Shown here piece by piece: positions 2,927-63,585 of a stretch of 64,000 nt of DNA; the stretch's first letter is position 1; the number at the start of each line of letters is the position of its first letter. Origin of the DNA: Felixounavirus LF82P2; sequence record OZ035741.1. One strand, written 5' to 3'. The notes under the pieces are model-generated. The model was not told the DNA's origin. It saw only the letters and a list, made by a program, of their open reading frames with translations, and made no database searches. A program made the position numbers and the translations under genes.

Positions 2927-3472
2927 TCAAAAGTGTCCTTTTACTTGTGGAACATAGATTTCAAAGGTTGCTTTACCATCTACTGATGGTTTTGACTGAA
3001 TCTTAGCGAAAATTTGACGGTCATGCAACTTATCAAAGAAATTCTCAAAAGGTAGATGCACAGTTGCCTCTTCAGTAACTTCATGGAAAACTGTATGGAA
3101 CACTACATCAGCATACGGTAAAGCACTGACAAGAATACCTACACCACCAATTACGAAGACGTCTTCTTCAATATTACTATCAAGATACTTTAAAAATGCT
3201 CCAAAAGAATCTTGATGAGCCTTAGCAAACATAACATCATCTTTGGTGAAGTCCATACCATAATAAGGCACAGAATTTGTTAAGATGAGGTTTGTACGTT
3301 CTGGTAAAGGTTTATTGCCCAGAGTCTTAAAAGTCTCGTTACCCATAACTACTAAGTTGTCTTTAGTAAGTCTCTTAAACTCTTGCATATCCTGTTTATG
3401 TCTAGGCCACGGCATACCAGTCGGTGTACCAAATTCACCGTTTTCACCACTTGCAAATATTAGCTTAATCAT
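2927..3472 (-). CDS. frd: dihydrofolate reductase
   Basis: 181 aa; DHFR-like N-terminus (IKLIFA..GxxGxxxxMPW) and VVMGxxTF motif; adjacent to thyA. Confidence 0.8.
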   Translation of the reverse strand: MIKLIFASGENGEFGTPTGMPWPRHKQDMQEFKRLTKDNLVVMGNETFKTLGNKPLPERTNLILTNSVPYYGMDFTKDDVMFAKAHQDSFGAFLKYLDSNIEEDVFVIGGVGILVSALPYADVVFHTVFHEVTEEATVHLPFENFFDKLHDRQIFAKIQSKPSVDGKATFEIYVPQVKGHF

Positions 3473-25213: not shown

Positions 25214-25230
25214 CATGTAAAGGGGCAATA

Positions 25231-27375
25231 ATGAACAAAGTACAGATTATTAAAAAGAATGGCTCACTTGAAGAACCTGATATCAAAAAAGTTTTAGCAG
25301 CAGTCACAAAGTCAGCTAACAGAGTTGGTTATAAAGAGCTTCCACCAGATGTTACTCAAGCTCTTGAGTCAGCATTTATGAGGATTCTGGTAAAGTCCAC
25401 TAAACAGAATAATTTGCTAATTTCGGTAAATGATATTCACAGTATTGTTGAGGGTGCTTTGGCAGAAGTCAATCACGAGATTTATGAGTCTTACTCAACA
25501 TATAGAAATTACCGTAAAGAGGTTGCTCAAAATTGGGATGAACTCTACCAGAAGACCAAAGATACACTCTTCTTAGGCGACCGAGAAAACGCTAATTTTG
25601 ACAGCAGTTTAATTTCTACAAAAGGCTCAATTATTCGTGGTTACCTGACTAAAGAAATCTTTAAACAGTACCATTTAACACCAGAGGAACTTGAAGCCAT
25701 TGAAAAAGGATTTATCTATATCCATGATTTAAGAGACCTAATTTTTGGTGGTATCAACTGTTGCCTGTTTGACATTGGTAAAGTCCTGAAAGGTGGCTTT
25801 GAAATGTCTGGCATCGAATATTGTGAACCGAAGTCTGTGCTGTCAGCCTTACAGGTTATTGGTGATGTAGTTCTTTCAGCAACTGCACAGCAATTTGGTG
25901 GCTTTACTTTAGCAGAGATTGATAAGGTACTTGTACCGTATGCTAAGAAGTCTCTACGCTATCATGCTGAGAAAGCAGCATCTTATGGTATTCCTAAAGA
26001 ACATTACCATAATTATGTCATGGAGCAGCTACAGATTGAATTAACTCAAGGTTTTCAGTCACTTGAAATGAAACTGAACACTGTACCTTGCAGCCGTGGT
26101 GATTTCGCATTCACAACTTTAACATTTGGGTTGCTCGACTCAGATATGTCTAATGAAGACAACCGACTACAATACATGATTGCAAGTACTCTCCTAGATG
26201 TTCGTATGAATGGACAAGGTAAGAGCAAGAAGCCTGTTGTATTTCCTAAACTGGTTTATATTTATGACCAGAAGAGACATGATGAAAATATCTGTCAAGG
26301 TCACCTGTACAGTAAAGCTATTGAGTGTTGCTCTAAAGCAATGTATCCAGATTTCTTAAGTGTATCTGGTCATGGTGCTGTAGCAGAGGCTTTTGAGCGT
26401 TCTGGCAAGGTTATTTCGCCGATGGGTTGCCGAGCGTTCTTATCTCCGTATCTTAACGAGAATGGGGAAGAGTTCTACGTTGGTCGTGCTAACATTGGTG
26501 CTGTATCTTTGAACTTACCAATGATTTACCAGTATTCTAAAGAGAATGGTTTAGATTTCTGGAAAGAGCTTGATAAGTACCTAGAAATGATTCGCAGCTT
26601 CCACAAGAAACGCTACGAAATGATTGCTAATATGCCAGCAAGTTCTAACCCTCTTGCATTCACGCAAGGTGGTCTGTACAAAGGGACTAAGAAGCCTACT
26701 GATAAGGTTGGTTGGGATATCGTGAAATCTTTCACAGCCTCTTTTGGGGTTACTGCTCTTGATGAGTTGTCTGTTCTTGCTGAGGGTAAACGACTCCATG
26801 AAGTTGGAAGCTGTAGTTTTGCATATGATGTTCTGGCATACATTAACATGAAAACTGAAGAGTTTAAGAACGAAGATGGCTTCTTGTATGCGGTATATGG
26901 CACTCCAGCAGAGTCATTGTGTGGAACTCAGCTAAAACAGTTCAGAGATATGTTTGGTGTTATTAAAGGCGTTTCTGACAAGGAATACTTTACAAACAGT
27001 TTCCATATGAATGTTGCAGCAAACATCTCACCATTTGAGAAGCAGGACTTAGAAGAGCCATTCTTCCATATCTGTAGAGGTGGCAGAATCCAGTATGTAA
27101 GGGTAGCTAACCCAGAAAACTTACCAGCACTTAAAAGTTGTATTACCAGAGGGATGTTGAAGGGTTTTTATCAGGGACTTAACTTTGACTTAGCAATCTG
27201 TGAACATTGTGGTAACAGACCAAAGGCTGATGTTGAAGAATGTGAGGTTTGTCATTCACACGATATCTCTGTGATTAACAGGGTGTGCGGGTACTTGTCA
27301 TTCACAAAAATTAAAGGTCAGTCTCGAATGAATGACGCTAAGATGGCAGAAATTAAGGATAGGGTTTCTATGTAG
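25231..27375 (+). CDS. nrdD: anaerobic ribonucleoside-triphosphate reductase
   Basis: 714 aa; C-terminal glycyl-radical motif RVCGYL and Cys-rich zinc site (CEHCG..CEVCH). Confidence 0.8.
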   Translation: MNKVQIIKKNGSLEEPDIKKVLAAVTKSANRVGYKELPPDVTQALESAFMRILVKSTKQNNLLISVNDIHSIVEGALAEVNHEIYESYSTYRNYRKEVAQNWDELYQKTKDTLFLGDRENANFDSSLISTKGSIIRGYLTKEIFKQYHLTPEELEAIEKGFIYIHDLRDLIFGGINCCLFDIGKVLKGGFEMSGIEYCEPKSVLSALQVIGDVVLSATAQQFGGFTLAEIDKVLVPYAKKSLRYHAEKAASYGIPKEHYHNYVMEQLQIELTQGFQSLEMKLNTVPCSRGDFAFTTLTFGLLDSDMSNEDNRLQYMIASTLLDVRMNGQGKSKKPVVFPKLVYIYDQKRHDENICQGHLYSKAIECCSKAMYPDFLSVSGHGAVAEAFERSGKVISPMGCRAFLSPYLNENGEEFYVGRANIGAVSLNLPMIYQYSKENGLDFWKELDKYLEMIRSFHKKRYEMIANMPASSNPLAFTQGGLYKGTKKPTDKVGWDIVKSFTASFGVTALDELSVLAEGKRLHEVGSCSFAYDVLAYINMKTEEFKNEDGFLYAVYGTPAESLCGTQLKQFRDMFGVIKGVSDKEYFTNSFHMNVAANISPFEKQDLEEPFFHICRGGRIQYVRVANPENLPALKSCITRGMLKGFYQGLNFDLAICEHCGNRPKADVEECEVCHSHDISVINRVCGYLSFTKIKGQSRMNDAKMAEIKDRVSM

Positions 27376-56600: not shown

Positions 56601-58016
56601 ATGAGCGAATTATTTAAACATGCGCACCTTCATGCAGGTCGAACTGAAAATGGTGCTGTAAACCATACTTCATCAATGTCTGCTCTTGTAGACTTTTACA
56701 AAGCTGCTGGTTCAAGCCGTAGCAATGTAGAAATCTTACCAGACCTGTTCTACAAAGCTTTGCGTGAGGATGTTGATGTTGCAGTTCGTATTTTACTGCA
56801 TATGCGAGATGTACGAGAAGGTATGGGTGAGCGTAAAGCCTTCAGAACTGTTTTGCTTCAAGCAATTGAAGATAAAGTTTTAGAGCCTACACAGGTTCTT
56901 CGCATTATGGATAAGATTGCAGAACTTGGTCGTTTTGATGACTTCAAAATCTTCGTAGGTACTCGTTTCGAGACAGATGCCTTCAAACATTTAGAAGCAG
57001 CATTACTAGACCCTGCAACAGCAGGTTTGGCAGCTAAGTGGTTACCACGAGTAAAACCACGTCACAAACAGTTTGTAAAACGTTTCTGCAAGTTTGCAAA
57101 CTTGAGTGAGAAGGAGTATCGCACACTGTTATCTGCACTGTCTGATACGGTTGAGCAAAAAATCTCTGCTAATGAGTTTGGTAAGATTGACTACAGTAAG
57201 ATTCCTTCACTTGCTGCTGCACGTTACCAAAAACTCTTTAACCGTAAAGATGGAGAACGCTACAAAGCTTACATTGAGTCCTTATCAAAGGGCGAGACTA
57301 AGATTAATGCTGGTGCTGTTTATCCATACGATGTGATTAAATCTGTTAAGTATGGTAATGCAGATGTTGCTAATGAGCAGTGGAAAGCACTACCAAACTG
57401 GATGGCAGAGGGTGAAAACATTCTATGTATGTCTGATGTTTCAAGTTCAATGTCTTGGGTGAATTTTGGTTCAATTACTGCTCTTGATATTGGTGTTTCA
57501 CTTGCATTGTATGTAGCAGAACGTAATACAGGTTGCTTTAAGAATGAGTTGATGGTTTATTCAACAAACCCTCACTTCATTGAACTGAGTGGTGATTTAC
57601 GAAACCGTCATCGTCAGGTGATGCGACACGTTGAATATGGCTCAACTAACTTACAAGCAGCTTTTGACCGTATTCTTGAGACAGGTAAAAGAAACAACTT
57701 GACTCAGAAAGATATGCCAAGTAAGCTTATCATCTTCTCCGATATGGAGTTCAATCAGGTTGATGGAGCTAACGGTCGTACAAACTTTGAAGCAATTCAG
57801 AGTAAGTACAAAAAAGCTGGATATGAGATGCCACAACTGGTATTCTGGTACTTAGCAAACCGTAATGGTACTTGCGAAGTATCTGTTAAGGATAACGGTG
57901 TAGCAATGGTATCAGGGTTCTCTCCAGCCACTTTAAAAGCTCTGCTTGGTGGTGAGAAGTTTGACCCAATCAGTGTAATGCTCAAAGCAGTAATGATTGA
58001 CCGTTATATCTGGTAA
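56601..58016 (+). CDS. von Willebrand factor A (vWA) domain protein
   Basis: 471 aa; MIDAS-like DVSSSMS (DxSxS) near residue 280 followed by Rossmann-like pattern; helical N-terminal domain. Confidence 0.4.
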   Translation: MSELFKHAHLHAGRTENGAVNHTSSMSALVDFYKAAGSSRSNVEILPDLFYKALREDVDVAVRILLHMRDVREGMGERKAFRTVLLQAIEDKVLEPTQVLRIMDKIAELGRFDDFKIFVGTRFETDAFKHLEAALLDPATAGLAAKWLPRVKPRHKQFVKRFCKFANLSEKEYRTLLSALSDTVEQKISANEFGKIDYSKIPSLAAARYQKLFNRKDGERYKAYIESLSKGETKINAGAVYPYDVIKSVKYGNADVANEQWKALPNWMAEGENILCMSDVSSSMSWVNFGSITALDIGVSLALYVAERNTGCFKNELMVYSTNPHFIELSGDLRNRHRQVMRHVEYGSTNLQAAFDRILETGKRNNLTQKDMPSKLIIFSDMEFNQVDGANGRTNFEAIQSKYKKAGYEMPQLVFWYLANRNGTCEVSVKDNGVAMVSGFSPATLKALLGGEKFDPISVMLKAVMIDRYIW

Positions 58017-58035
58017 AAAGTTTTAAAAAGGGTAT

Positions 58036-58064
58036 TGACAATGTGTTTAATACCCTTTAATATG
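58036..58064 (+). promoter_or_regulatory. sigma70-like promoter (TTGACA-17-TAATAT) upstream of tRNA cluster
   Basis: Consensus -35 and near-consensus -10. Confidence 0.45.
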
Positions 58065-58171
58065 TTCTACATAGAAGCGAAATGAGAGCTTTTCTAAGAT
58101 ACTGAAAAATATTTTAAAAAAGCTCTTGACAACCACTAAAAAATAATGTTAAAGTGGTTACATAGAGTTTG

Positions 58172-58248
58172 AAAAGTTTATCTCTGTTTAGCTCAGCTTG
58201 GTAGAGCGTTCCGTTTGGGGCGGTAAGGCCGGAGGTTCAAGTCCTCCA
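58172..58248 (+). tRNA. tRNA-Pro (anticodon TGG)
   Basis: 7 bp acceptor stem, T-loop GGTTCAAGTCC, anticodon loop TTTGGGG, encoded CCA. Confidence 0.7.
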
Positions 58249-58265
58249 ACAGAGACCAAATTAAT

Positions 58266-58343
58266 GTTCCAGTAGACAAAATGGTATAGTCACCACTCTT
58301 TCAAAGTGGACATCTGAGGGTTCAAATCCCTTCTGGAACGCCA
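58266..58343 (+). tRNA. tRNA-Glu (anticodon TTC)
   Basis: Acceptor GTTCCAG/CTGGAAC, anticodon stem CCACT/AGTGG, loop CTTTCAA. Confidence 0.65.
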
Positions 58344-58434
58344 GTTTTGACAGAAGACCAAATACAGCAAACTTAATCTTATTCATCTGAAGGTAAATCG
58401 GACAAAGAAGAGATTTGGTCTGGTCATTAAGAAT

Positions 58435-58511
58435 TGCGGGTATAGAGAAAGGGCGTCTCACATGTCTCATTAGCATGGTATCGGCAGGTTCGACTCCTGC
58501 ACCCGCCTCCA
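58435..58511 (+). tRNA. tRNA-Met (anticodon CAT), atypical (T at position 37, mismatch at pair 1-72)
   Basis: Anticodon stem CATGT/GCATG, loop CTCATTA, T-loop GGTTCGACTCC. Confidence 0.5.
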
Positions 58512-58594
58512 AATTTACAGAAGACCGTTTACAGCAACATTTATTAAATTTTTAGCGGAAAAATTGAAAGATACGGTCTGGTAATACTAAACAT

Positions 58595-58671
58595 GGTTAG
58601 GAAGCACATAAGGTATGTGCGGTCGCCTGTTAAGCGAATGGCACAGGGTTCGAATCCCTGACTAACCGCCA
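58595..58671 (+). tRNA. tRNA-Asn (anticodon GTT)
   Basis: Anticodon loop CTGTTAA; T-loop GGGTTCGAATCCC; CCA encoded. Confidence 0.65.
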
Positions 58672-58740
58672 AATTTAGGAGAGAAGCGATTGCTCACCGA
58701 TTTGTAAGGTGCAAGTCCTTAGCCTGAATAGAAATTAAAT

Positions 58741-58828
58741 GTGTCGTTATCCCGTAGATGGTAGCGGTGGGGACTGTAAATCCCTTGTCATTGAGACTCG
58801 GTAGGTTCGACTCCTACACGGCACACCA
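58741..58828 (+). tRNA. tRNA-Tyr (anticodon GTA), long variable arm
   Basis: Acceptor GTGTCGT/ACGGCAC, anticodon stem GGGGA/TCCCT loop CTGTAAA, 88 nt. Confidence 0.7.
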
Positions 58829-58833
58829 ATAAA

Positions 58834-58911
58834 GGTTATGTAGTTTAATTTGGTTAAAATACTCCCCTGTCACGGGAGATGATGAGGGTTCAAATCCCTT
58901 CGTAACCGCCA
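58834..58911 (+). tRNA. tRNA-Asp (anticodon GTC)
   Basis: Acceptor GGTTATG/CGTAACC, anticodon stem CTCCC/GGGAG loop CTGTCAC. Confidence 0.7.
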
Positions 58912-59081
58912 ATTTTGAGAGGGCTATTTAGCCCCTCCCTTAAAGGGTTCTTACGAGTATCCTTTAAAGGAGCAGAAGACCAAATACAGCAAGTTACTTA
59001 AAATTTCAAGCCAATTTAATTTTGAAAAATTTAAAACTTGGTCTGGCTCAACAAATTTACAGAAGACCGTTTACAGCAAAA

Positions 59082-59178
59082 CTTAAACAATCTATTTCTC
59101 GGTAAAGAAAAGGCGAAGGTTCGATTCCTTCACTCGGCAGATGTCGAGTTGGTGTAATGGTAGCACTTAAGATGATAA
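59082..59178 (+). pseudogene. tRNA halves in permuted order (3' half upstream of 5' half); possible circularly permuted tRNA or rearranged pseudogene
   Basis: 3' part 59082-59139 (CTTAA, variable-arm hairpin, T-arm GAAGG-TTCGATT-CCTTC, acceptor ACTCGGC) then 5' part 59143-59178 (acceptor GTCGAGT, D-arm, TTAAG, loop ATGATAA). Confidence 0.35.
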
Positions 59179-59339
59179 ACAACGGTCTGGTAATTATCTT
59201 TGTAGATAAGTTATTAAGCTTACCTGTGAGTATGCGACCACAAAGGGTGAAAGGGTAAATTCTAGATTTAAACCCAAAAAGGCACATCGCTACAGACCTT
59301 AAGCAAGTCTGGGTAGCTTATCTACAAAGATAATTTAAT

Positions 59340-59415
59340 GGAAGTGTAGCAGAATGGTGATGCGGCAGACTTTTAATCTGACAGGCGATGGGTTCGAATC
59401 CCTCCACTTCTACCA
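59340..59415 (+). tRNA. tRNA-Lys (anticodon TTT)
   Basis: Acceptor GGAAGTG/CACTTCT, anticodon loop CTTTTAA, T-loop GGGTTCGAATCCC. Confidence 0.65.
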
Positions 59416-59419
59416 ATAT

Positions 59420-59496
59420 GGTTCAGTCGCAGATAAGGTAATGCAAGGGTCTCATAAGCCCTATGAATGTGGGTTCGAATCCCATCTGAACCTCCA
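59420..59496 (+). tRNA. tRNA-Met (anticodon CAT), GGG/CCC anticodon stem (initiator-like feature)
   Basis: Anticodon arm AGGGT-CTCATAA-GCCCT; acceptor GGTTCAG/CTGAACC fully paired. Confidence 0.65.
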
Positions 59497-59498
59497 AT

Positions 59499-59573
59499 TG
59501 TGGGTTAGCATAAATGGTAATGCAAACGGCTGATAACCGTTAGAAGAGGGTTCGATACCCTCACCTACAACCA
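59499..59573 (+). tRNA. tRNA-Ile (anticodon GAT)
   Basis: Anticodon arm AACGG-CTGATAA-CCGTT; T-loop GGGTTCGATACCC. Confidence 0.7.
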
Positions 59574-59591
59574 AGTTCAATAAAGTTGTTG

Positions 59592-59620
59592 ACATTGAGA
59601 TGTGACTACTTTATAGTAAC
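59592..59620 (+). promoter_or_regulatory. sigma70-like promoter inside tRNA cluster (TTGACA-17-TATAGT)
   Basis: Consensus -35 and good -10 in spacer after tRNA-Ile. Confidence 0.45.
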
Positions 59621-59821
59621 CTTAGTTTTCGTTGCGTAGCGTCTATTTTGCAAATTTAAAATAAATGCAAACGACAATGTTTTTCTGGCAGTAGCTTGAT
59701 AGGCTAAACACCAGTGAGGTCTTCCAATCCCTCATCAAAGAATTTGGCGTACTCGCCCACGGTATGATTAATAAGGTGGGCATCTTTAAGGGCTTTCTAA
59801 GAGAGTCTTTAAAGATAATTA

Positions 59822-59903
59822 CGGGGCGTATCTCAGCGGTCTTCTAAACCGCCGTTAACCGAGTAAGTGGAGTATGCGGGTTCGAGTCCTGCCGCCTCGA
59901 CCA
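59822..59903 (+). tRNA. atypical tRNA-like gene (possible Arg, anticodon TCT), non-canonical arm arrangement
   Basis: Acceptor CGGGGCG/CGCCTCG plus T-arm GCGGG-TTCGAGT-CCTGC and CCA; perfect hairpin GCGGT-CTTCTAA-ACCGC sits where the D-arm should be. Confidence 0.4.
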
Positions 59904-60046
59904 ATTTAGTTAGCAGATTACTTAGACGACCTAAGCGGGTCTTCCTGTAGGGAGGTGGTCTGTATCTCATGTTTTCCAGAACATGTAAATAATCTGAGAA
60001 GGGGCTTTACAGTGTTGAGATAATACGGTAAGCTTCGAATTATAGT

Positions 60047-60129
60047 ATGGGACGATGTTAAGACTCTAAGGCATGAGCAACGGCCTCCAAAACCGTTTCA
60101 AAGGGGTTCAACTCCTCCGTCCCATGCCA
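60047..60129 (+). tRNA. tRNA-Trp (anticodon CCA), enlarged D region (83 nt)
   Basis: Perfect acceptor ATGGGAC/GTCCCAT, anticodon arm ACGGC-CTCCAAA-ACCGT, T-loop GGGGTTCAACTCC. Confidence 0.5.
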
Positions 60130-60142
60130 AAGTCTTATTAGG

Positions 60143-60230
60143 GGTAGGTAGCGGCTAATGGCAGCCAAACAGTCTTGAAAACTGTTGCCACTGTAGAGAT
60201 ACGGTGAGGGTTCGACTCCTTTACTTACCG
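60143..60230 (+). tRNA. tRNA-Ser (anticodon TGA), long variable arm, CCA not encoded
   Basis: Anticodon arm ACAGT-CTTGAAA-ACTGT; long variable arm; T-loop GGGTTCGACTCC. Confidence 0.65.
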
Positions 60231-60488
60231 CCTAATAAGATTTTTAAAGCCAAGCTTCATTCGGATGTTGCTTTGGTATCCCTCGTGTATTGTCGTACAC
60301 ACTGATAAAACACCTAGTAGGTGTCACGGAGAAGAGATAATATCAAGCTCTCCAAAGGTTCTAGTCACCGGATTAAACAAGACTATGCAAAGACCTTTTA
60401 GGTCTTTTTAGAGGGCTTCTAAGGTTATTACAGCTTGTTGTGGAACCTTGTTGCTTAGGTTCTTAGAAGTTCTCTAAAAAGATTTAAT

Positions 60489-60566
60489 GGGAGATTGACG
60501 GTAATTGGTAAACCTATCTCGCTTAGAACGAGATGTTTGAGGGTTCGAATCCCTTGTCTCCTACCA
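60489..60566 (+). tRNA. tRNA-Leu (anticodon TAG) with short variable loop
   Basis: Anticodon arm TCTCG-CTTAGAA-CGAGA perfect; discriminator A; T-loop GGGTTCGAATCCC. Confidence 0.55.
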
Positions 60567-60573
60567 AATTAAT

Positions 60574-60649
60574 GCAGGTGTAGCAAAATGGTTATGCGGC
60601 TGACTCTTAATCAGTAAGACGATGGGTTCAATTCCCTCCACCTGTACCA
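60574..60649 (+). tRNA. tRNA-Lys (anticodon CTT)
   Basis: Scaffold similar to tRNA-Lys(TTT); anticodon arm GCTGA-CTCTTAA-TCAGT. Confidence 0.55.
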
Positions 60650-60655
60650 AACAAT

Positions 60656-60731
60656 GGGGTCATAGTTTATATGGTTAAAATTCGAGTTTTGCAAACTTGG
60701 GAACTGAGTTCAATTCTCAGTGACTCCACCA
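60656..60731 (+). tRNA. tRNA-Ala (anticodon TGC)
   Basis: Acceptor GGGGTCA/TGACTCC with G3-T70 wobble; anticodon loop TTTGCAA. Confidence 0.65.
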
Positions 60732-60737
60732 ATTAGT

Positions 60738-60812
60738 GCATCCATAGTTTAAACGGGAAAATTACAGTCTTCCAAACTGAGGTTGAGGGTTCGATTCCCT
60801 CTGGATGCTCCA
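60738..60812 (+). tRNA. tRNA-Gly (anticodon TCC)
   Basis: Acceptor GCATCCA/TGGATGC; anticodon arm ACAGT-CTTCCAA-ACTGA. Confidence 0.65.
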
Positions 60813-60826
60813 AATTAAGGTGTGAT

Positions 60827-61240
60827 ATGAAAATATGCAGTACTTGCAGAATACCAAAAGATGAAAGCTTATTCCATAAGAATAAGAACAAGAAAGACGG
60901 TCTTCAAAGTCAATGCAAAGATTGTGCAAGACTCCGTGATGCAAAGAGTTATCAAGCAAATGATAAAAGGAAAGAGGCTATTAAAAGCACTCGTAACTTC
61001 AAGAGAGAGCATAACAAGACTCTAGCTAGAAGGTACAAAGCTTTATGCAAATGTCATATATGTGGTGAGAAAGAACCAGTTGCACTGGATTTACACCATA
61101 CAGACCCTTCCCAGAAAGATTTGAATCCTGCATCACTTTATTCATACTCCACAAAAAGATTAAAAGATGAAATCAGAAAGTGCATTGTCTTGTGCGCTAA
61201 CTGTCACAGAAAAGTACATGCTGGTATCATAAAAGTTTAA
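60827..61240 (+). CDS. HNH endonuclease embedded in tRNA cluster
   Basis: Cys-rich N-terminus and C-terminal DLHHTD..CANCHRKVH HNH motif. Confidence 0.6.
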   Translation: MKICSTCRIPKDESLFHKNKNKKDGLQSQCKDCARLRDAKSYQANDKRKEAIKSTRNFKREHNKTLARRYKALCKCHICGEKEPVALDLHHTDPSQKDLNPASLYSYSTKRLKDEIRKCIVLCANCHRKVHAGIIKV

Positions 61241-61241
61241 T

Positions 61242-61318
61242 GCTGCTTTCGTATAATTGGCTATTACACATCCCTTGTAAGGATGGAAATGCAGGTTCGA
61301 GTCCTGTGAGCAGCACCA
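61242..61318 (+). tRNA. tRNA-Thr (anticodon TGT)
   Basis: Anticodon arm CATCC-CTTGTAA-GGATG; T-loop GGTTCGAGTCC. Confidence 0.7.
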
Positions 61319-61413
61319 ATTCAGAGGTCAAGTGAAAGACCGCTGGTGTCAACTGAAGACCGTAACAAATTCCACGGAGTTGAGTTAGCGGCACAACTTC
61401 AGACCTCTTTCAT

Positions 61414-61488
61414 ACTCGCTTAGTTTATATGGTAAAACATCACCCTTACAAGATGAAGAAAAAGGTTCAAGTCCTTTAGTGAGTACCA
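61414..61488 (+). tRNA. tRNA-Val (anticodon TAC), one mismatch in anticodon stem
   Basis: Acceptor ACTCGCT/AGTGAGT; anticodon arm TCACC-CTTACAA-GATGA (C-A mismatch). Confidence 0.5.
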
Positions 61489-61489
61489 T

Positions 61490-61567
61490 GTTCCAGTATC
61501 CCAATTGGCAGAGGATGCAAGCTCAAACCTTGTACTAGTGACGGTTCGAATCCGTCTTGGAACACCA
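61490..61567 (+). tRNA. tRNA-Leu (anticodon CAA) with short variable loop
   Basis: Anticodon arm GCAAG-CTCAAAC-CTTGT; discriminator A; T-loop GGTTCGAATCC. Confidence 0.55.
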
Positions 61568-61572
61568 ATTTT

Positions 61573-61648
61573 GCAGGATTAGTTCAAATGGATAGAGCAA
61601 CAGTCTACGAAGCTGTTAATAGGGGTTCGAATCCCTTATCCTGCGCCA
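61573..61648 (+). tRNA. tRNA-Arg (anticodon ACG)
   Basis: Acceptor GCAGGAT/ATCCTGC; anticodon arm ACAGT-CTACGAA-GCTGT. Confidence 0.7.
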
Positions 61649-61667
61649 ATTTAAAGAGGCTATTTAG

Positions 61668-62225
61668 ATGAGATATTTGAAGTATGCTTCATGGATTTTC
61701 TTAGCTTTGTTAGAACCATTTGCAGCAATCTTAGCAGTTATCTTAGCACCTTTTGTAGTTCCATTTTACAGTGAGAAGAAAGGACACTTACCTTTCGGAT
61801 TTAGATGGATGGAAACTTATGACAACCCAATTGATGGTGATGAAGGTCACGTTAAAAGATGGGCTAATATTAGATGGATTGGTAAGCTTGGTGTCTATAT
61901 GCAGAGAGTCGGTTGGCTCTGGAGAAACAAAGCTTATAACTTCTCTTACCATGTGTTAGGAAGAGATGTAAAAGATGTTACTAAGTGGAAAGGTAATATC
62001 AACGTAAGTTCTAACCCTGAAGATAATCAGACAGGTTATCTCCTAATGTGGAACAGCAATGCTTGGGGATTATTCGCTTTTATACCATCAATTAAAATCT
62101 TTGGTAAACAGTTCTACTGGAGAATTTATATTGGGTGGAAGCTAAAAAGTGTTGTCCCAGAAGAAAGAGCATTCTCAAGGGAAAGAGTTATGTTGGCATT
62201 CTTTATTCATCCACTAAGAAATTAA
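61668..62225 (+). CDS. hypothetical membrane protein embedded in tRNA cluster
   Basis: 185 aa; hydrophobic N-terminal segment, Trp-rich. Confidence 0.4.
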   Translation: MRYLKYASWIFLALLEPFAAILAVILAPFVVPFYSEKKGHLPFGFRWMETYDNPIDGDEGHVKRWANIRWIGKLGVYMQRVGWLWRNKAYNFSYHVLGRDVKDVTKWKGNINVSSNPEDNQTGYLLMWNSNAWGLFAFIPSIKIFGKQFYWRIYIGWKLKSVVPEERAFSRERVMLAFFIHPLRN

Positions 62226-62233
62226 AGATTTAA

Positions 62234-62309
62234 AGGGGATTAGTTTACAAGGTTAAAACCTCGGTCTTTGAAATCGAAGAAGTTGGTTCAATTCCAACAT
62301 CCCCCGCCA
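62234..62309 (+). tRNA. tRNA-Gln (anticodon TTG)
   Basis: Anticodon arm TCGGT-CTTTGAA-ATCGA; T-loop GGTTCAATTCC; pair 1-72 mismatched. Confidence 0.6.
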
Positions 62310-62311
62310 AT

Positions 62312-62390
62312 GCTCCATTACTCCAATTGGCAGAGAGGCCAGACTTAAAATCTGTGTTATGTATCGGTTCGAATCCGATATGGAGTACCA
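62312..62390 (+). tRNA. tRNA-Leu (anticodon TAA) with intermediate-length variable region
   Basis: Anticodon loop CTTAAAA; discriminator A; D region similar to tRNA at 61490. Confidence 0.5.
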
Positions 62391-62395
62391 AATTT

Positions 62396-62471
62396 AGCGG
62401 TATAGCATAACTGGCAATGCAACAGTCTCTGAAGCTGTCTTATTAAGGTTCAAATCCTTATGCCGCTGCCA
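62396..62471 (+). tRNA. tRNA-Gln (anticodon CTG)
   Basis: Anticodon arm ACAGT-CTCTGAA-GCTGT; T-loop GGTTCAAATCC. Confidence 0.55.
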
Positions 62472-62502
62472 CTTCTAAGGGTTCTTACGAGAGTCCTTAA
62501 AT

Positions 62503-62578
62503 GTGGCCTTATCATAAATGGTAATGACCCATGCTGTGAACATGGTCTATACGGGTTCAAATCCCGTAGGTCACCCCA
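62503..62578 (+). tRNA. tRNA-His (anticodon GTG)
   Basis: Anticodon arm CCATG-CTGTGAA-CATGG; discriminator C. Confidence 0.7.
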
Positions 62579-62583
62579 ATTTA

Positions 62584-62660
62584 TAGTCCAAGTAGCTTAT
62601 ATGGTTAAAGCGCGTGTCTGAAAAACATGAGAAGAGGGTTCAAATCCCACTGGACTACCA
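62584..62660 (+). tRNA. tRNA-Phe (anticodon GAA)
   Basis: Acceptor TAGTCCA/TGGACTA; anticodon loop CTGAAAA. Confidence 0.6.
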
Positions 62661-62676
62661 ATTTCAAAGGTGCTTA

Positions 62677-63411
62677 ATGAAAGAGATGACAGAACAAGGT
62701 AAGGAGATTTTTAATCTCTTAAAAACCGGTAAAGGGTTTTCTAACCCACTTATTACTGGTGCAGCAGTTCTCGGTGGAACCGTAGCTGCTTCTACATCAC
62801 TTGTAAGCTCTATTAGTTCTGTAACAGACCCTACAATGCAGGAGAAACTTGTTGCTGCTGGACTTACAACAGTCCTTCTAAACAGCTTTACAACAAGCCT
62901 TACAAGCACTACAGCAACTACTAAGACCCTGACAGACTACGGTCAAAAATCTATTGATGAGTTTTCATCACGTATGCAGGTAGCAAAGGGATATTCCAAT
63001 GTTATGGGTGCAGCAGGAGAACAAGTTGGTTGTACACCGTTCAGTGGTATTATGGGTGTTGCTACAGAATATGGTCAAAAAGCTATTGATACGATTAACA
63101 GTACACTAGAGAGTGTTAACAATGTATTAAGTGACTTACAAGACGCTATTGACAAGGGTCTTGATACTGTTTCTGATTTAGCTAACCAAGCTGTCAGTAA
63201 GATTAATGAAGGTATCTCAAAGATTACAGCTTATGCAGATGAAGTTGTGCAGATGATTGAAGAAGAATCTGCCCTTATTGCAGAGTACCTTAAAACGAAT
63301 ATCAATGGGTTCTTAGCAGGTATCTTACCAGACTGGTTTGATGATGCCTGTAAAACTGGTGTAATTGACACTATTGCAACACCAGAAATGAAGAACGCAT
63401 TACAGAAATAA
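62677..63411 (+). CDS. hypothetical protein embedded in tRNA cluster
   Basis: Track ORF 62614-63411 overlaps tRNA-Phe; start moved to ATG 62677 after AAAGG RBS; Thr/Ser-rich then helical. Confidence 0.45.
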   Translation: MKEMTEQGKEIFNLLKTGKGFSNPLITGAAVLGGTVAASTSLVSSISSVTDPTMQEKLVAAGLTTVLLNSFTTSLTSTTATTKTLTDYGQKSIDEFSSRMQVAKGYSNVMGAAGEQVGCTPFSGIMGVATEYGQKAIDTINSTLESVNNVLSDLQDAIDKGLDTVSDLANQAVSKINEGISKITAYADEVVQMIEEESALIAEYLKTNINGFLAGILPDWFDDACKTGVIDTIATPEMKNALQK

Positions 63412-63412
63412 T

Positions 63413-63505
63413 GGAAGATTAACCCTAAAAGGTAAGGGAGCAGTTTGCTAAACTGACAGTAGCTGAGAAATCGGTGTACCAGTTCAAGTCTGGTATCTTC
63501 CTCCA
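63413..63505 (+). tRNA. tRNA-Ser (anticodon GCT), long variable arm
   Basis: Perfect acceptor GGAAGAT/ATCTTCC; anticodon loop TTGCTAA; 93 nt. Confidence 0.65.
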
Positions 63506-63509
63506 ATTT

Positions 63510-63585
63510 GAATCCGTGACAGAAATGGCTATGTGCCTGTCTGCAAAACAGGTTTATAAGGGTTCGAGTCCCTTCGGATTCTCCA
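63510..63585 (+). tRNA. tRNA-Cys (anticodon GCA)
   Basis: Acceptor GAATCCG/CGGATTC; anticodon arm CCTGT-CTGCAAA-ACAGG. Confidence 0.7.

Follow-up and report, generated by a model that had tools for sequence, protein, structure and literature searches.

The stretch of DNA analysed here, 64,000 nucleotides (nt) of Felixounavirus LF82P2 (record OZ035741.1; hereafter the window), carries a tRNA gene cluster that contains four copies of an inverted-repeat element, and upstream of it a gene for a Ro60-like protein. In the region studied, the window is 100% identical to LF82P1 (Felixounavirus) and 98% identical to Felix O1 and to Escherichia phage JohannRWettstein (Bas63); it belongs to a Felix O1-like phage. 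ARAGORN identified 25 tRNA genes on the plus strand at 58182-63585. The Ro60-like gene occupies positions 56601-58016 of the same strand and encodes 471 amino acids (aa); from its stop codon to the starts of the elements there are 332 to 1041 nt, copy 1 being the nearest at 332 nt. The elements have the orientation of the gene and, in every case, that of the tRNAs. Two plus-strand sigma-70-like promoters, found by a consensus scan as pattern matches only, with 10 of 12 positions each, lie 5′ of tRNA-Pro at 58035-58063 and 58126-58155, and no plus-strand terminator-like site was found from there to the next promoter at 59589. Judged from these signals, the promoters at 58035-58155 probably start a transcript that comprises tRNAs and the four elements. 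Our literature search found no transcriptome or expression data for Felix O1-like phages.

Anatomy and conservation of the four elements

The original prediction, made from the sequence alone, had claimed four inverted-repeat copies in the cluster, and our analysis confirmed them as real and non-random. The 5′ motif AGAAGACCNNNTACAGCAA occurs exactly at 58352, 58519, 58974 and 59061 and at no other site on either strand of the 64 kb. When up to three mismatches were allowed, six matches were found against 0.76 expected, a number that none of 100 shuffled sequences reached, and a repeat search grouped the four motifs as one family (D7). The complementary 3′ arms, all ending in GGTCTGG, are located at 58413-58423, 58573-58581, 59038-59046 and 59181-59190, and the distance from ACAGCAA to the 3′ arm is 44, 35, 45 and 102 nt in copies 1 to 4. 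The predicted co-variation of the arms between copies was likewise borne out (AAAU/AUUU versus GU(U)/(A)AC). Folding with RNAfold revealed in addition an outer helix of 4 base pairs (bp), P1, absent from the prediction, which differs in sequence between copies and always pairs; with P1 included, the limits of the elements become 58348-58426, 58515-58584, 58970-59049 and 59057-59193 and their length 70-137 nt. All four copies share a common base. From the outside inwards it consists of P1, an asymmetric internal loop with 5′ AGA opposite 3′ G, the helix P2 of 7-9 bp, which starts with AGACC and continues with two to four variable pairs, the single-stranded (U)UACAGCAA and a variable insert.

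Copy 1, between tRNA-Glu and tRNA-Met, is closed by P1 UGAC 58348-51 paired with GUCA 58423-26, followed by the internal loop AGA 58352-54 opposite G 58422, P2 AGACCAAAU 58355-63 paired with AUUUGGUCU 58413-21 and ACAGCAA 58364-70; above these stands a stem of 5 bp topped by a loop of 7 nt. Copy 2 lies between tRNA-Met and tRNA-Asn and is built from P1 UUAC 58515-18 with GUAA 58581-84, AGA opposite G 58580, P2 AGACCGU 58522-28 with ACGGUCU 58573-79, ACAGCAA 58531-37 and a small A/U hairpin. The corresponding parts of copy 3 are P1 GAGC 58970-73 with GCUC 59046-49, AGA opposite G 59045, P2 AGACCAA 58977-83 with UUGGUCU 59038-44, ACAGCAA 58986-92 and a 6-bp hairpin with a 12-nt loop. Copy 4, the longest, is formed by P1 UUAC 59057-60 with GUAA 59190-93, P2 AGACCGUU 59064-71 with AACGGUCU 59181-88 and ACAGCAA 59073-79, and carries the tRNA-like body described below. 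As had also been claimed, the elements show no coding potential: the open reading frames (ORFs) of 50 aa or more that overlap them are all on the minus strand and, because they extend over tRNA genes as well, look spurious. Two other structural explanations were tried and rejected. Pairing across tRNAs, of a 3′ arm with the 5′ arm of the next copy, was limited to 5 bp and showed no covariation. The basal loop, which has 3 nt opposite 1 nt and no tandem G-A pairs, was compared by eye with the cores of the hairpin and hammerhead ribozymes, the kink-turn and the bulge-helix-bulge, and fitted none of them.

Close relatives conserve the elements. When IMG/VR was searched with the exact pattern, about 30 Felix O1-like contigs with two to four copies each were retrieved, together with about 35 unrelated contigs that match a 19-mer by chance and have no proper 3′ arm. 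Covariation across related phages, proposed by the original prediction as a check, was found in both helices. Among 20 distinct basal sequences P1 is paired in 100%, both partners varying in three of its four pairs, while the variable P2 pairs split into 9 AU and 9 GC and into 10 AU and 10 UA; sliding the 3′ partners by one to three columns as a register control reduced pairing to 24-50%. Several changes produce G-U pairs, as in AGGCC with GGUCU; read on the opposite strand these would be mismatches, so the constraint acts on the plus-strand transcript. All four copies are kept in position and structure, with compensatory changes, across Felixounavirus and Mooglevirus. Kolesnikvirus, of the same subfamily, has kept the upstream DUF5681 gene and a dense tRNA cluster and has neither the Ro-like gene nor the elements, and is thus a natural negative control for the link between the two.

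The insert of copy 4 contains, on the plus strand at 59095-59166, a tRNA-like domain whose arms, as read from the sequence, stand in permuted order. An anticodon-like arm (UUUCU-CGGUAA-AGAAA, 59095-59110) and the nucleotides AGGC are followed by a T arm of textbook form (GAAGG-UUCGAUU-CCUUC, 59115-59131), by a closed 7-bp acceptor hairpin (3′ strand ACUCGGC 59132-38, loop AGAU, 5′ strand GUCGAGU 59143-49), by UG and by a D arm (GUGU-AAUGGUA-GCAC, 59152-59166). The anticodon-like arm generally has a 5-bp stem and a 6-7 nt loop C(U/C)NNNAA, with four nucleotides after it. In relatives the acceptor hairpin is swapped for very different paired sequences: besides ACUCGGC/GUCGAGU we found ACACGU-UACG-GCGUGU, closed by a UACG tetraloop, and ACCCUUC-GCCAAACA-GAAGGGU, which encodes GCCA and then a 4-nt spacer. 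The RNAalifold consensus of eight variants predicted every arm of copy 4, with three compensatory pairs in the acceptor hairpin. Neither ARAGORN nor the Rfam tRNA model RF00005 detected a canonical tRNA in any of the four copies, and the sole RF00005 signal in them was a partial match of 14.9 bits to the copy 4 T arm. Copy 4 is most likely a circularly permuted tRNA mimic with the architecture of the Y RNA YrlA.

Circularly permuted and split tRNA genes occur in the red alga Cyanidioschyzon merolae, and permuted tmRNA is a two-piece molecule. As in permuted tRNA genes, the halves of copy 4 are exchanged: the 3′ half, with the T arm and the 3′ acceptor strand, comes first and the 5′ half, with the 5′ acceptor strand and the D arm, comes second, and a helix joins the outer ends. 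Unlike them, copy 4 bears no sign of a mature, chargeable tRNA, its anticodon-like loop is not conserved and its acceptor end is closed in most variants. The splicing endonuclease pathway for permuted pre-tRNAs is not known from bacteria.

The Ro60-like neighbour and the module in other phages

The product of the gene at 56601-58016 matches Pfam DUF2828 and DUF7788 and PHROG 850 ('RNA-binding protein'). In an alignment of 38 homologues, the residues D279, S281, S283, T349 and D381 of the metal ion-dependent adhesion site (MIDAS) of its vWA domain are invariant. In a Foldseek search with its AlphaFold2 model (predicted local distance difference test score, pLDDT, 88; predicted template modelling score, pTM, 0.87), the ten best PDB matches were all Ro60, Rsr or TROVE proteins, matched over the full length at E values of 1e-8 to 2e-6, with TM scores of 0.5-0.65 and about 12% identity; they came from Xenopus, human, Deinococcus (Rsr) and one phage TROVE protein. 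The modelled structure suggests that the protein folds like Ro60, a likeness at the level of the fold only. Homologues in mycobacteriophages (33% identity) are annotated as 'Ro-like RNA binding protein', and bas63_0130 (gp130) of Bas63 is the ortholog at the same position. Gp130 was described as Ro60-like by structure and, in a genetic screen, as a counter to the Ppl defence, and Y RNAs were suspected among the Bas63 tRNA genes without being located (PhageMaP preprint, PMC11482910).

A similar proposal exists for Listeria phage CKA15, which has an Rsr-like protein and abundant unannotated RNAs, with Y RNAs proposed nearby; the Rsr-like homologue of a Listeria phage was also found in purified virions (PMC12282133). 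The top-transcribed region of CKA15 (26,236-26,727), the only one to which the study assigns coordinates, is apart from its ACAGCAA elements (25,214-25,612, OR088597) and holds other structured RNAs. Because the coordinates do not coincide, that study backs the idea and not the ACAGCAA RNAs themselves. In Listeria phage List-36, about 1 kb of unannotated sequence (locus L075, 960-2030) behind two consensus promoters and 5′ of the ACAGCAA elements corresponds in position to the top-transcribed region of CKA15, and would represent other, larger non-coding RNAs. We also noted an RtcB-type 'tRNA splicing ligase' near the Ro-like gene in List-36 (L075 5810-7021) and an RNA ligase near that of Serratia phage BF (L082 756-2015); RNA-repair genes beside a Ro-like gene echo the bacterial rsr-yrlA-rtcBA arrangement.

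Reading of the flanks of homologous genes showed that the same design adjoins the Ro-like gene, on the gene strand and usually in tandem, in unrelated phages. Klebsiella phage FBKp34 has four copies, one of them tRNA-like, and mycobacteriophages BigCheese and Tyson have three copies each, the middle one tRNA-like. The module is also present in phages of Campylobacter (CP81), Listeria (List-36), Staphylococcus (6ec), Cronobacter (S13), Aeromonas (LAh_6), Rhizobium (RHph_I1_18), Enterococcus (VRE9_1) and Bacillus (FADO). From the curated phage flanks we derived a fixed-geometry rule. It requires that the 7 nt at -9 to -3 of ACAGCAA find a pairing partner, located 12-230 nt downstream and followed by G, and allows no more than two G-U pairs. 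The rule marked all four elements in the window and none of the 16 other ACAGCAA sites; over the window and 20 curated phage loci it marked 39 of 94 ACAGCAA sites, all on the gene strand. It was then applied, as fixed beforehand, to two independent sets that had not been used to derive it. Among 75 IMG/VR contigs with homologues of 38-47% identity, 35 loci had elements on the gene strand, 49 in total, and the opposite strand had none; for 80 contigs of bacterial genomes and metagenome-assembled genomes (MAGs; 33-42% identity), the figures were 49 loci with 97 elements on the gene strand and a single element on the opposite one. A covariance model (R1) was built from interior-trimmed pseudo-sequences and performs poorly with long loops, and was therefore used only as a control of strand and position. 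At E≤1 it gave 31 matches in the IMG/VR set, all on the gene strand; in the window it matched only the four copies and nothing upstream of 56601, the best match being copy 2 (34.5 bits, E 1e-5), the only copy aligned fully.

The module was also found in two further contexts, both of which point to direct recognition by the protein. One is the 5′ leader of the Ro-like gene itself, where Vibrio phage XZ1 and many uncultivated phages have just one short copy (for example at L094 2950-2991, L099 1760-1800, L102 2855-2895, L113 2946-2990 and L072 ~2965-3000), whose 3′ strand (..CUG) abuts or encloses the Shine-Dalgarno sequence and the ATG. This layout is the usual one for an autoregulating RNA-binding protein and suggests translational autoregulation through the same recognition in those phages. 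In FBKp34 (L070 6003-6116) and Cronobacter phage S13 (L073 4895-5016 and 5025-5138), otherwise normal cloverleaf tRNAs are enlarged by about 40 nt inserted between the D and anticodon arms. This insert comprises a hairpin of 6-7 bp, then UU or AU, then (A/U)CAGCA (ACUUCU-UAG-AGAAGU UU UACAGCA; GCAAACU-GAYA-AGUUUGU AU UCAGCA), that is, the same module in non-permuted topology. These tRNAs are a circular permutation of copy 4: in copy 4 the outer end of the module is open and the acceptor closed, whereas in the insert-bearing tRNAs this is reversed. As a separate observation, tRNA matches of 111-138 nt lie just 5′ of the Ro-like gene in three MAG loci (L193, L197 and L214).

Relation to known RNA families and interpretation

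YrlA, a tRNA-mimicking Y RNA that binds bacterial Ro60, is arranged in the order stem, V region, T arm, closed acceptor stem, D arm, stem (PMC4201824), and Thermus phage phiLo encodes Ro60 together with Yrl1/2 (PMC12135203). The elements of the window resemble Y RNAs, and YrlA (RF02553) in particular, in lying less than 4 kb from a gene for a Ro60 fold on the same strand, in the pairing of their ends in a bulged stem with a conserved motif on the 5′ side, in a length (70-137 nt) near the 80-130 nt or so of Y RNAs, and in a variable upper module. The order of T arm, closed acceptor-like hairpin and D arm is found in copy 4 only; copies 1-3 have a single hairpin like YrlB, so that a tRNA-like RNA stands beside simpler ones, as YrlA does beside YrlB. 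Some relatives have CCA in the acceptor loop, and M. smegmatis YrlA is cut by RNase P and receives CCA. On long relatives RF02553 scored 39.6 bits (FBKp34, E 8.6e-6) and 36.4 bits (Tyson, E 1.4e-4), the threshold being 69 bits. There are also differences. In place of GNCGAAN0-1G/CGAA the elements conserve ACAGCAA, set at a fixed distance from a 7-bp helix that precedes it, the neighbouring protein belongs to DUF2828/DUF7788 and not to TROVE by sequence, and, unlike YrlA, the window RNAs are situated inside a tRNA operon, copy 4 keeps an anticodon-like arm and a non-permuted form exists. The only literal GNCGAA match, GGCGAAG at 59112-59118, is in the copy 4 T stem, far from the 5′ end, and is not conserved, relatives having GGAGAAG.

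An Rfam scan of the cluster at permissive thresholds matched the copies only to tRNAs or at chance level, except for a weak match of Dicty_Class_I (RF01414) to copy 2. Class I RNAs of Dictyostelium are eukaryotic, 42-65 nt long, probably transcribed by RNA polymerase III, preceded by a dictyostelid promoter element and reported as unique to Dictyostelia; they have a short end-joining stem, the invariant CCUUACAGCAA after its 5′ strand and a 3′ CUGU (PMC7919456). The phage elements, with their end-joining stem and invariant ACAGCAA, closely resemble this design of a stem, a single-stranded (CC)UUACAGCAA after the 5′ strand, a 3′ CUG(U) and a variable remainder, which the RF01414 consensus GaUcuC-CUUACAGCAA...GagAuC-UG also displays. 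Against a gathering score of 41.5, RF01414 gave sub-threshold scores of 25.2 bits in FBKp34, 25.7-29.6 bits in Aeromonas phage LAh_6 and, as its best match in the window, 17.1 bits (E 4.1) in copy 2. Compared with the 11-nt motif CCUUACAGCAA, copies 2 and 4 read GUUUACAGCAA (9 of 11) and copies 1 and 3 read AAAUACAGCAA (8 of 11), and in the Rfam alignments the spacing from stem to motif differs by 1 nt between the phage relatives and Class I. The window elements, at 70-137 nt and in a bacterial-type operon, differ from Class I in both respects, and the likeness is one of design only. The only proven direct binder of Class I RNA is the RRM protein Rnp1A/CIBP, and one of four proteins pulled down with a Class I RNA is DDB_G0281243, of unknown function (PMC7919456).

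The original prediction had likened the elements to the two small stable RNAs of the T4 tRNA region. As a family relationship this analogy fails: T4 species 1 and 2 (rnaC and rnaD) are also small stable RNAs at the end of a phage tRNA cluster, and rnaC has a T-arm-like hairpin, but folding and inspection of the two revealed neither the helix + ACAGCAA module nor a P1/P2 stem that closes the molecule. The annotation of the 5 kb of T4 examined includes no Ro-like gene.

Our preferred reading, to which we assign a probability of roughly 0.7, is that the four elements are Y-RNA-like ligands of the adjacent Ro60-like protein and that one of them is a permuted tRNA mimic; the set would comprise three minimal members and one of YrlA type. 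It builds on the anatomy and conservation of the elements, on the fold of the neighbouring protein and on the strand-specific co-occurrence of gene and module. The RNAs would be transcribed with the tRNAs from the promoters at 58035-58155 and released when RNase P and 3′-end nucleases mature the adjacent tRNAs, and the closing of P1 would protect their ends. That they are small structured RNAs co-transcribed with tRNAs, one half of what the original prediction had suggested, fits the promoters, the lack of a terminator, the maintained helices and the strand. The shared base would then be the protein-binding site, its geometry and its co-occurrence with the gene being observed: a 7-bp helix that in most cases opens with an A-U and a G-C pair and has an unpaired G next to its 3′ strand, a purine bulge, and a single-stranded ACAGCAA exactly 2 nt past the helix. 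The variable tops, which in copies 1-3 are simple hairpins and in copy 4 a tRNA-like body of L shape, may give each ribonucleoprotein (RNP) a different partner, or act as gate or decoy, as bacterial Y RNAs do for Rsr and PNPase. By analogy with Bas63, the outcome could be a tuning of the protein that counters Ppl.

It is unlikely that the elements are instead protein-bound operators, in cis or in trans, or decoys that set the level of free Ro-like protein by titration, and not RNP scaffolds. The leader copies that abut or enclose the Shine-Dalgarno sequence and the ATG have a classic autoregulatory layout, and gp130 acts against Ppl without the RNAs, as this alternative would allow. The window copies, however, lie downstream of the gene inside the tRNA operon and not in a leader, R1 finding no copy upstream of 56601, and the tRNA-like fold is preserved in full, its arms co-varying, between copy 4 and distant counterparts, which a mere binding site would not need. 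The other half of the original suggestion, precursor-processing structures, is disfavoured. That the elements are nothing more than spacers which direct or order the maturation of the polycistronic tRNA precursor, for example as substrates of RNase III, E or P, with no independent existence as RNAs and no link to the upstream protein, seems to us quite unlikely. Each copy does have a tRNA end 5-13 nt away, with tRNA genes on both sides or a further spacer structure as neighbour, and P1 joins both flanks in the manner of rRNA processing stems. Yet the module adjoins the homologous gene where there are no flanking tRNAs (6ec, the mycobacteriophages BigCheese and Tyson, the 5′ leaders), the equally dense tRNA cluster of Kolesnikvirus has neither the gene nor the elements, and a processing stem would require neither an invariant single-stranded ACAGCAA at a fixed 2 nt from the helix nor a tRNA-shaped insert. 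That the elements are decayed or rearranged tRNA pseudogenes, debris of recombination or homing endonuclease activity without function as RNA or DNA, as the wrong order of the tRNA halves in copy 4, the HNH endonuclease ORF in the cluster and tRNA-like fragments in other spacers (repeat family D12) might indicate, is very improbable given the conservation of four copies with compensatory changes in Felixounavirus and Mooglevirus, the replacement of the acceptor hairpin by different, fully paired sequences (one with a stable UACG loop), the recurrence of the module in unrelated phages of Gram-positive hosts, and the G-U pairs and strict strand bias, which argue for selection at the level of RNA and not of duplex DNA.

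Several points nevertheless weigh against the elements being Y-RNA-like ligands. A TROVE relationship is not seen by sequence: Pfam reports only DUF2828/DUF7788, NCBIfam and phmmer against the PDB report nothing, and the family profile matched PDB Ro60 sequences only at E 0.4 and within the vWA part. The Y RNA motif GNCGAAN0-1G (CGAA) is absent from the basal stem, the 5′ strands of which read ACAGAAGACCNNNUACAGCAA, and RF02553 matched nothing in the window, whether 6.1 kb were searched at E≤1 or 1 kb at E≤10. Fold z-scores of the single copies are modest (-1.9 to -2.2). About 40-50% of the homologue loci have no strict element within 3 kb. The helix statistics of the cross-phage alignment (A3) are circular, because its rows were chosen for pairing, and were not used; for the cross-phage module only the controls of strand and position are independent. 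Plaquing on Ppl strains was restored by gp130 on its own, whether supplied from a plasmid or carried by T7 (PMC11482910); gp130 thus works without phage RNAs, which are not needed for the anti-Ppl phenotype. Finally, expression and binding of the four RNAs are what we infer.

Considered as Y-RNA-like ligands, the elements are part of a widespread class of structured RNAs that is absent from Rfam and of which we found no description in the literature searched. They tie an RNA class to a large protein family still labelled a 'domain of unknown function', and would represent tRNA mimicry through circular permutation in a bacteriophage. The presumed RNA partners of gp130 had only been guessed as 'some tRNA genes', and exact candidate RNAs are now available; together with a mutable module and a sequence rule that supplies hundreds of further examples, they make the biochemistry directly testable. 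A wider claim, which we put forward only tentatively, is that Ro60-like proteins of the DUF2828 branch, be they from phages, prophages or eukaryotes, in general have the stem-plus-ACAGCAA design as their RNA ligand. If this is true, the Class I RNAs of dictyostelids would be eukaryotic members of the class, perhaps acting through a DUF2828 protein, for which DDB_G0281243 is a candidate; a checkable link to these unexplained RNAs is thereby raised. The module would also be portable, closing a permuted tRNA in copy 4 and sitting as a hairpin in normal-looking tRNAs, and tRNAs or tRNA mimics could be tethered to the Ro-like ring. The RNP would, in addition, be part of the counter-defence of Felix O1-like phages.

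Other structures in the tRNA cluster

Several further structures were observed in the cluster. The tRNA-Asn/tRNA-Tyr spacer (58672-58740) contains a T-arm-like hairpin, AAGGUGCAAGUCCUU (58706-58720), which may be a tRNA remnant or another small structured RNA. Between copy 4 and tRNA-Lys, an inverted repeat at 59192-59335 with 22-nt arms of 95% complementarity encloses about 100 nt and is probably another structured RNA; in Bas63, small minus-strand ORFs are annotated at its place. Behind a strong sigma-70-like promoter at 59589-59617, with 11 of 12 matches, a short frame (59667-59702) encodes ANDNVFLAVA, similar to the SsrA/tmRNA tag ANDENYALAA, and then two stops. Weak Rfam matches to permuted tmRNA (59516-59699, 31.4 bits) and to tmRNA (59631-59820) were obtained there, ARAGORN called no tmRNA in the region 59589-59820, and in a Kolesnikvirus relative (L078) ANDAQFLAVA is apparently encoded at the matching place, as judged by eye. 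The region 59589-59820 may be a phage tmRNA-like gene.

ARAGORN missed two tRNA-like genes. The first, at 59822-59903, matches the Rfam tRNA model with 31.7 bits and is annotated as tRNA-Arg(UCU) in Bas63 and Sf14. The second, at 60049-60123, has a weak match to the tRNA-Sec clan (23 bits) and ends in ...GCCA. Between tRNA-Gly and tRNA-Thr, an inserted ORF of 137 aa (60827-61240) matches HNH endonucleases weakly (E 0.005) and probably encodes a homing endonuclease inside the tRNA cluster. The partial GAAGACCG motif that had been reported to recur at 61319-61413 is indeed present; it does not mark a fifth copy, as ACAGCAA and a matching arm are missing and R1 is silent at this site. The 95 nt at 61319-61413, in the tRNA-Thr/tRNA-Val spacer, instead form an extended hairpin, with the same fold (about -30 kcal/mol) predicted in Sf14 and KMM2, and are a different structured spacer RNA conserved in relatives.

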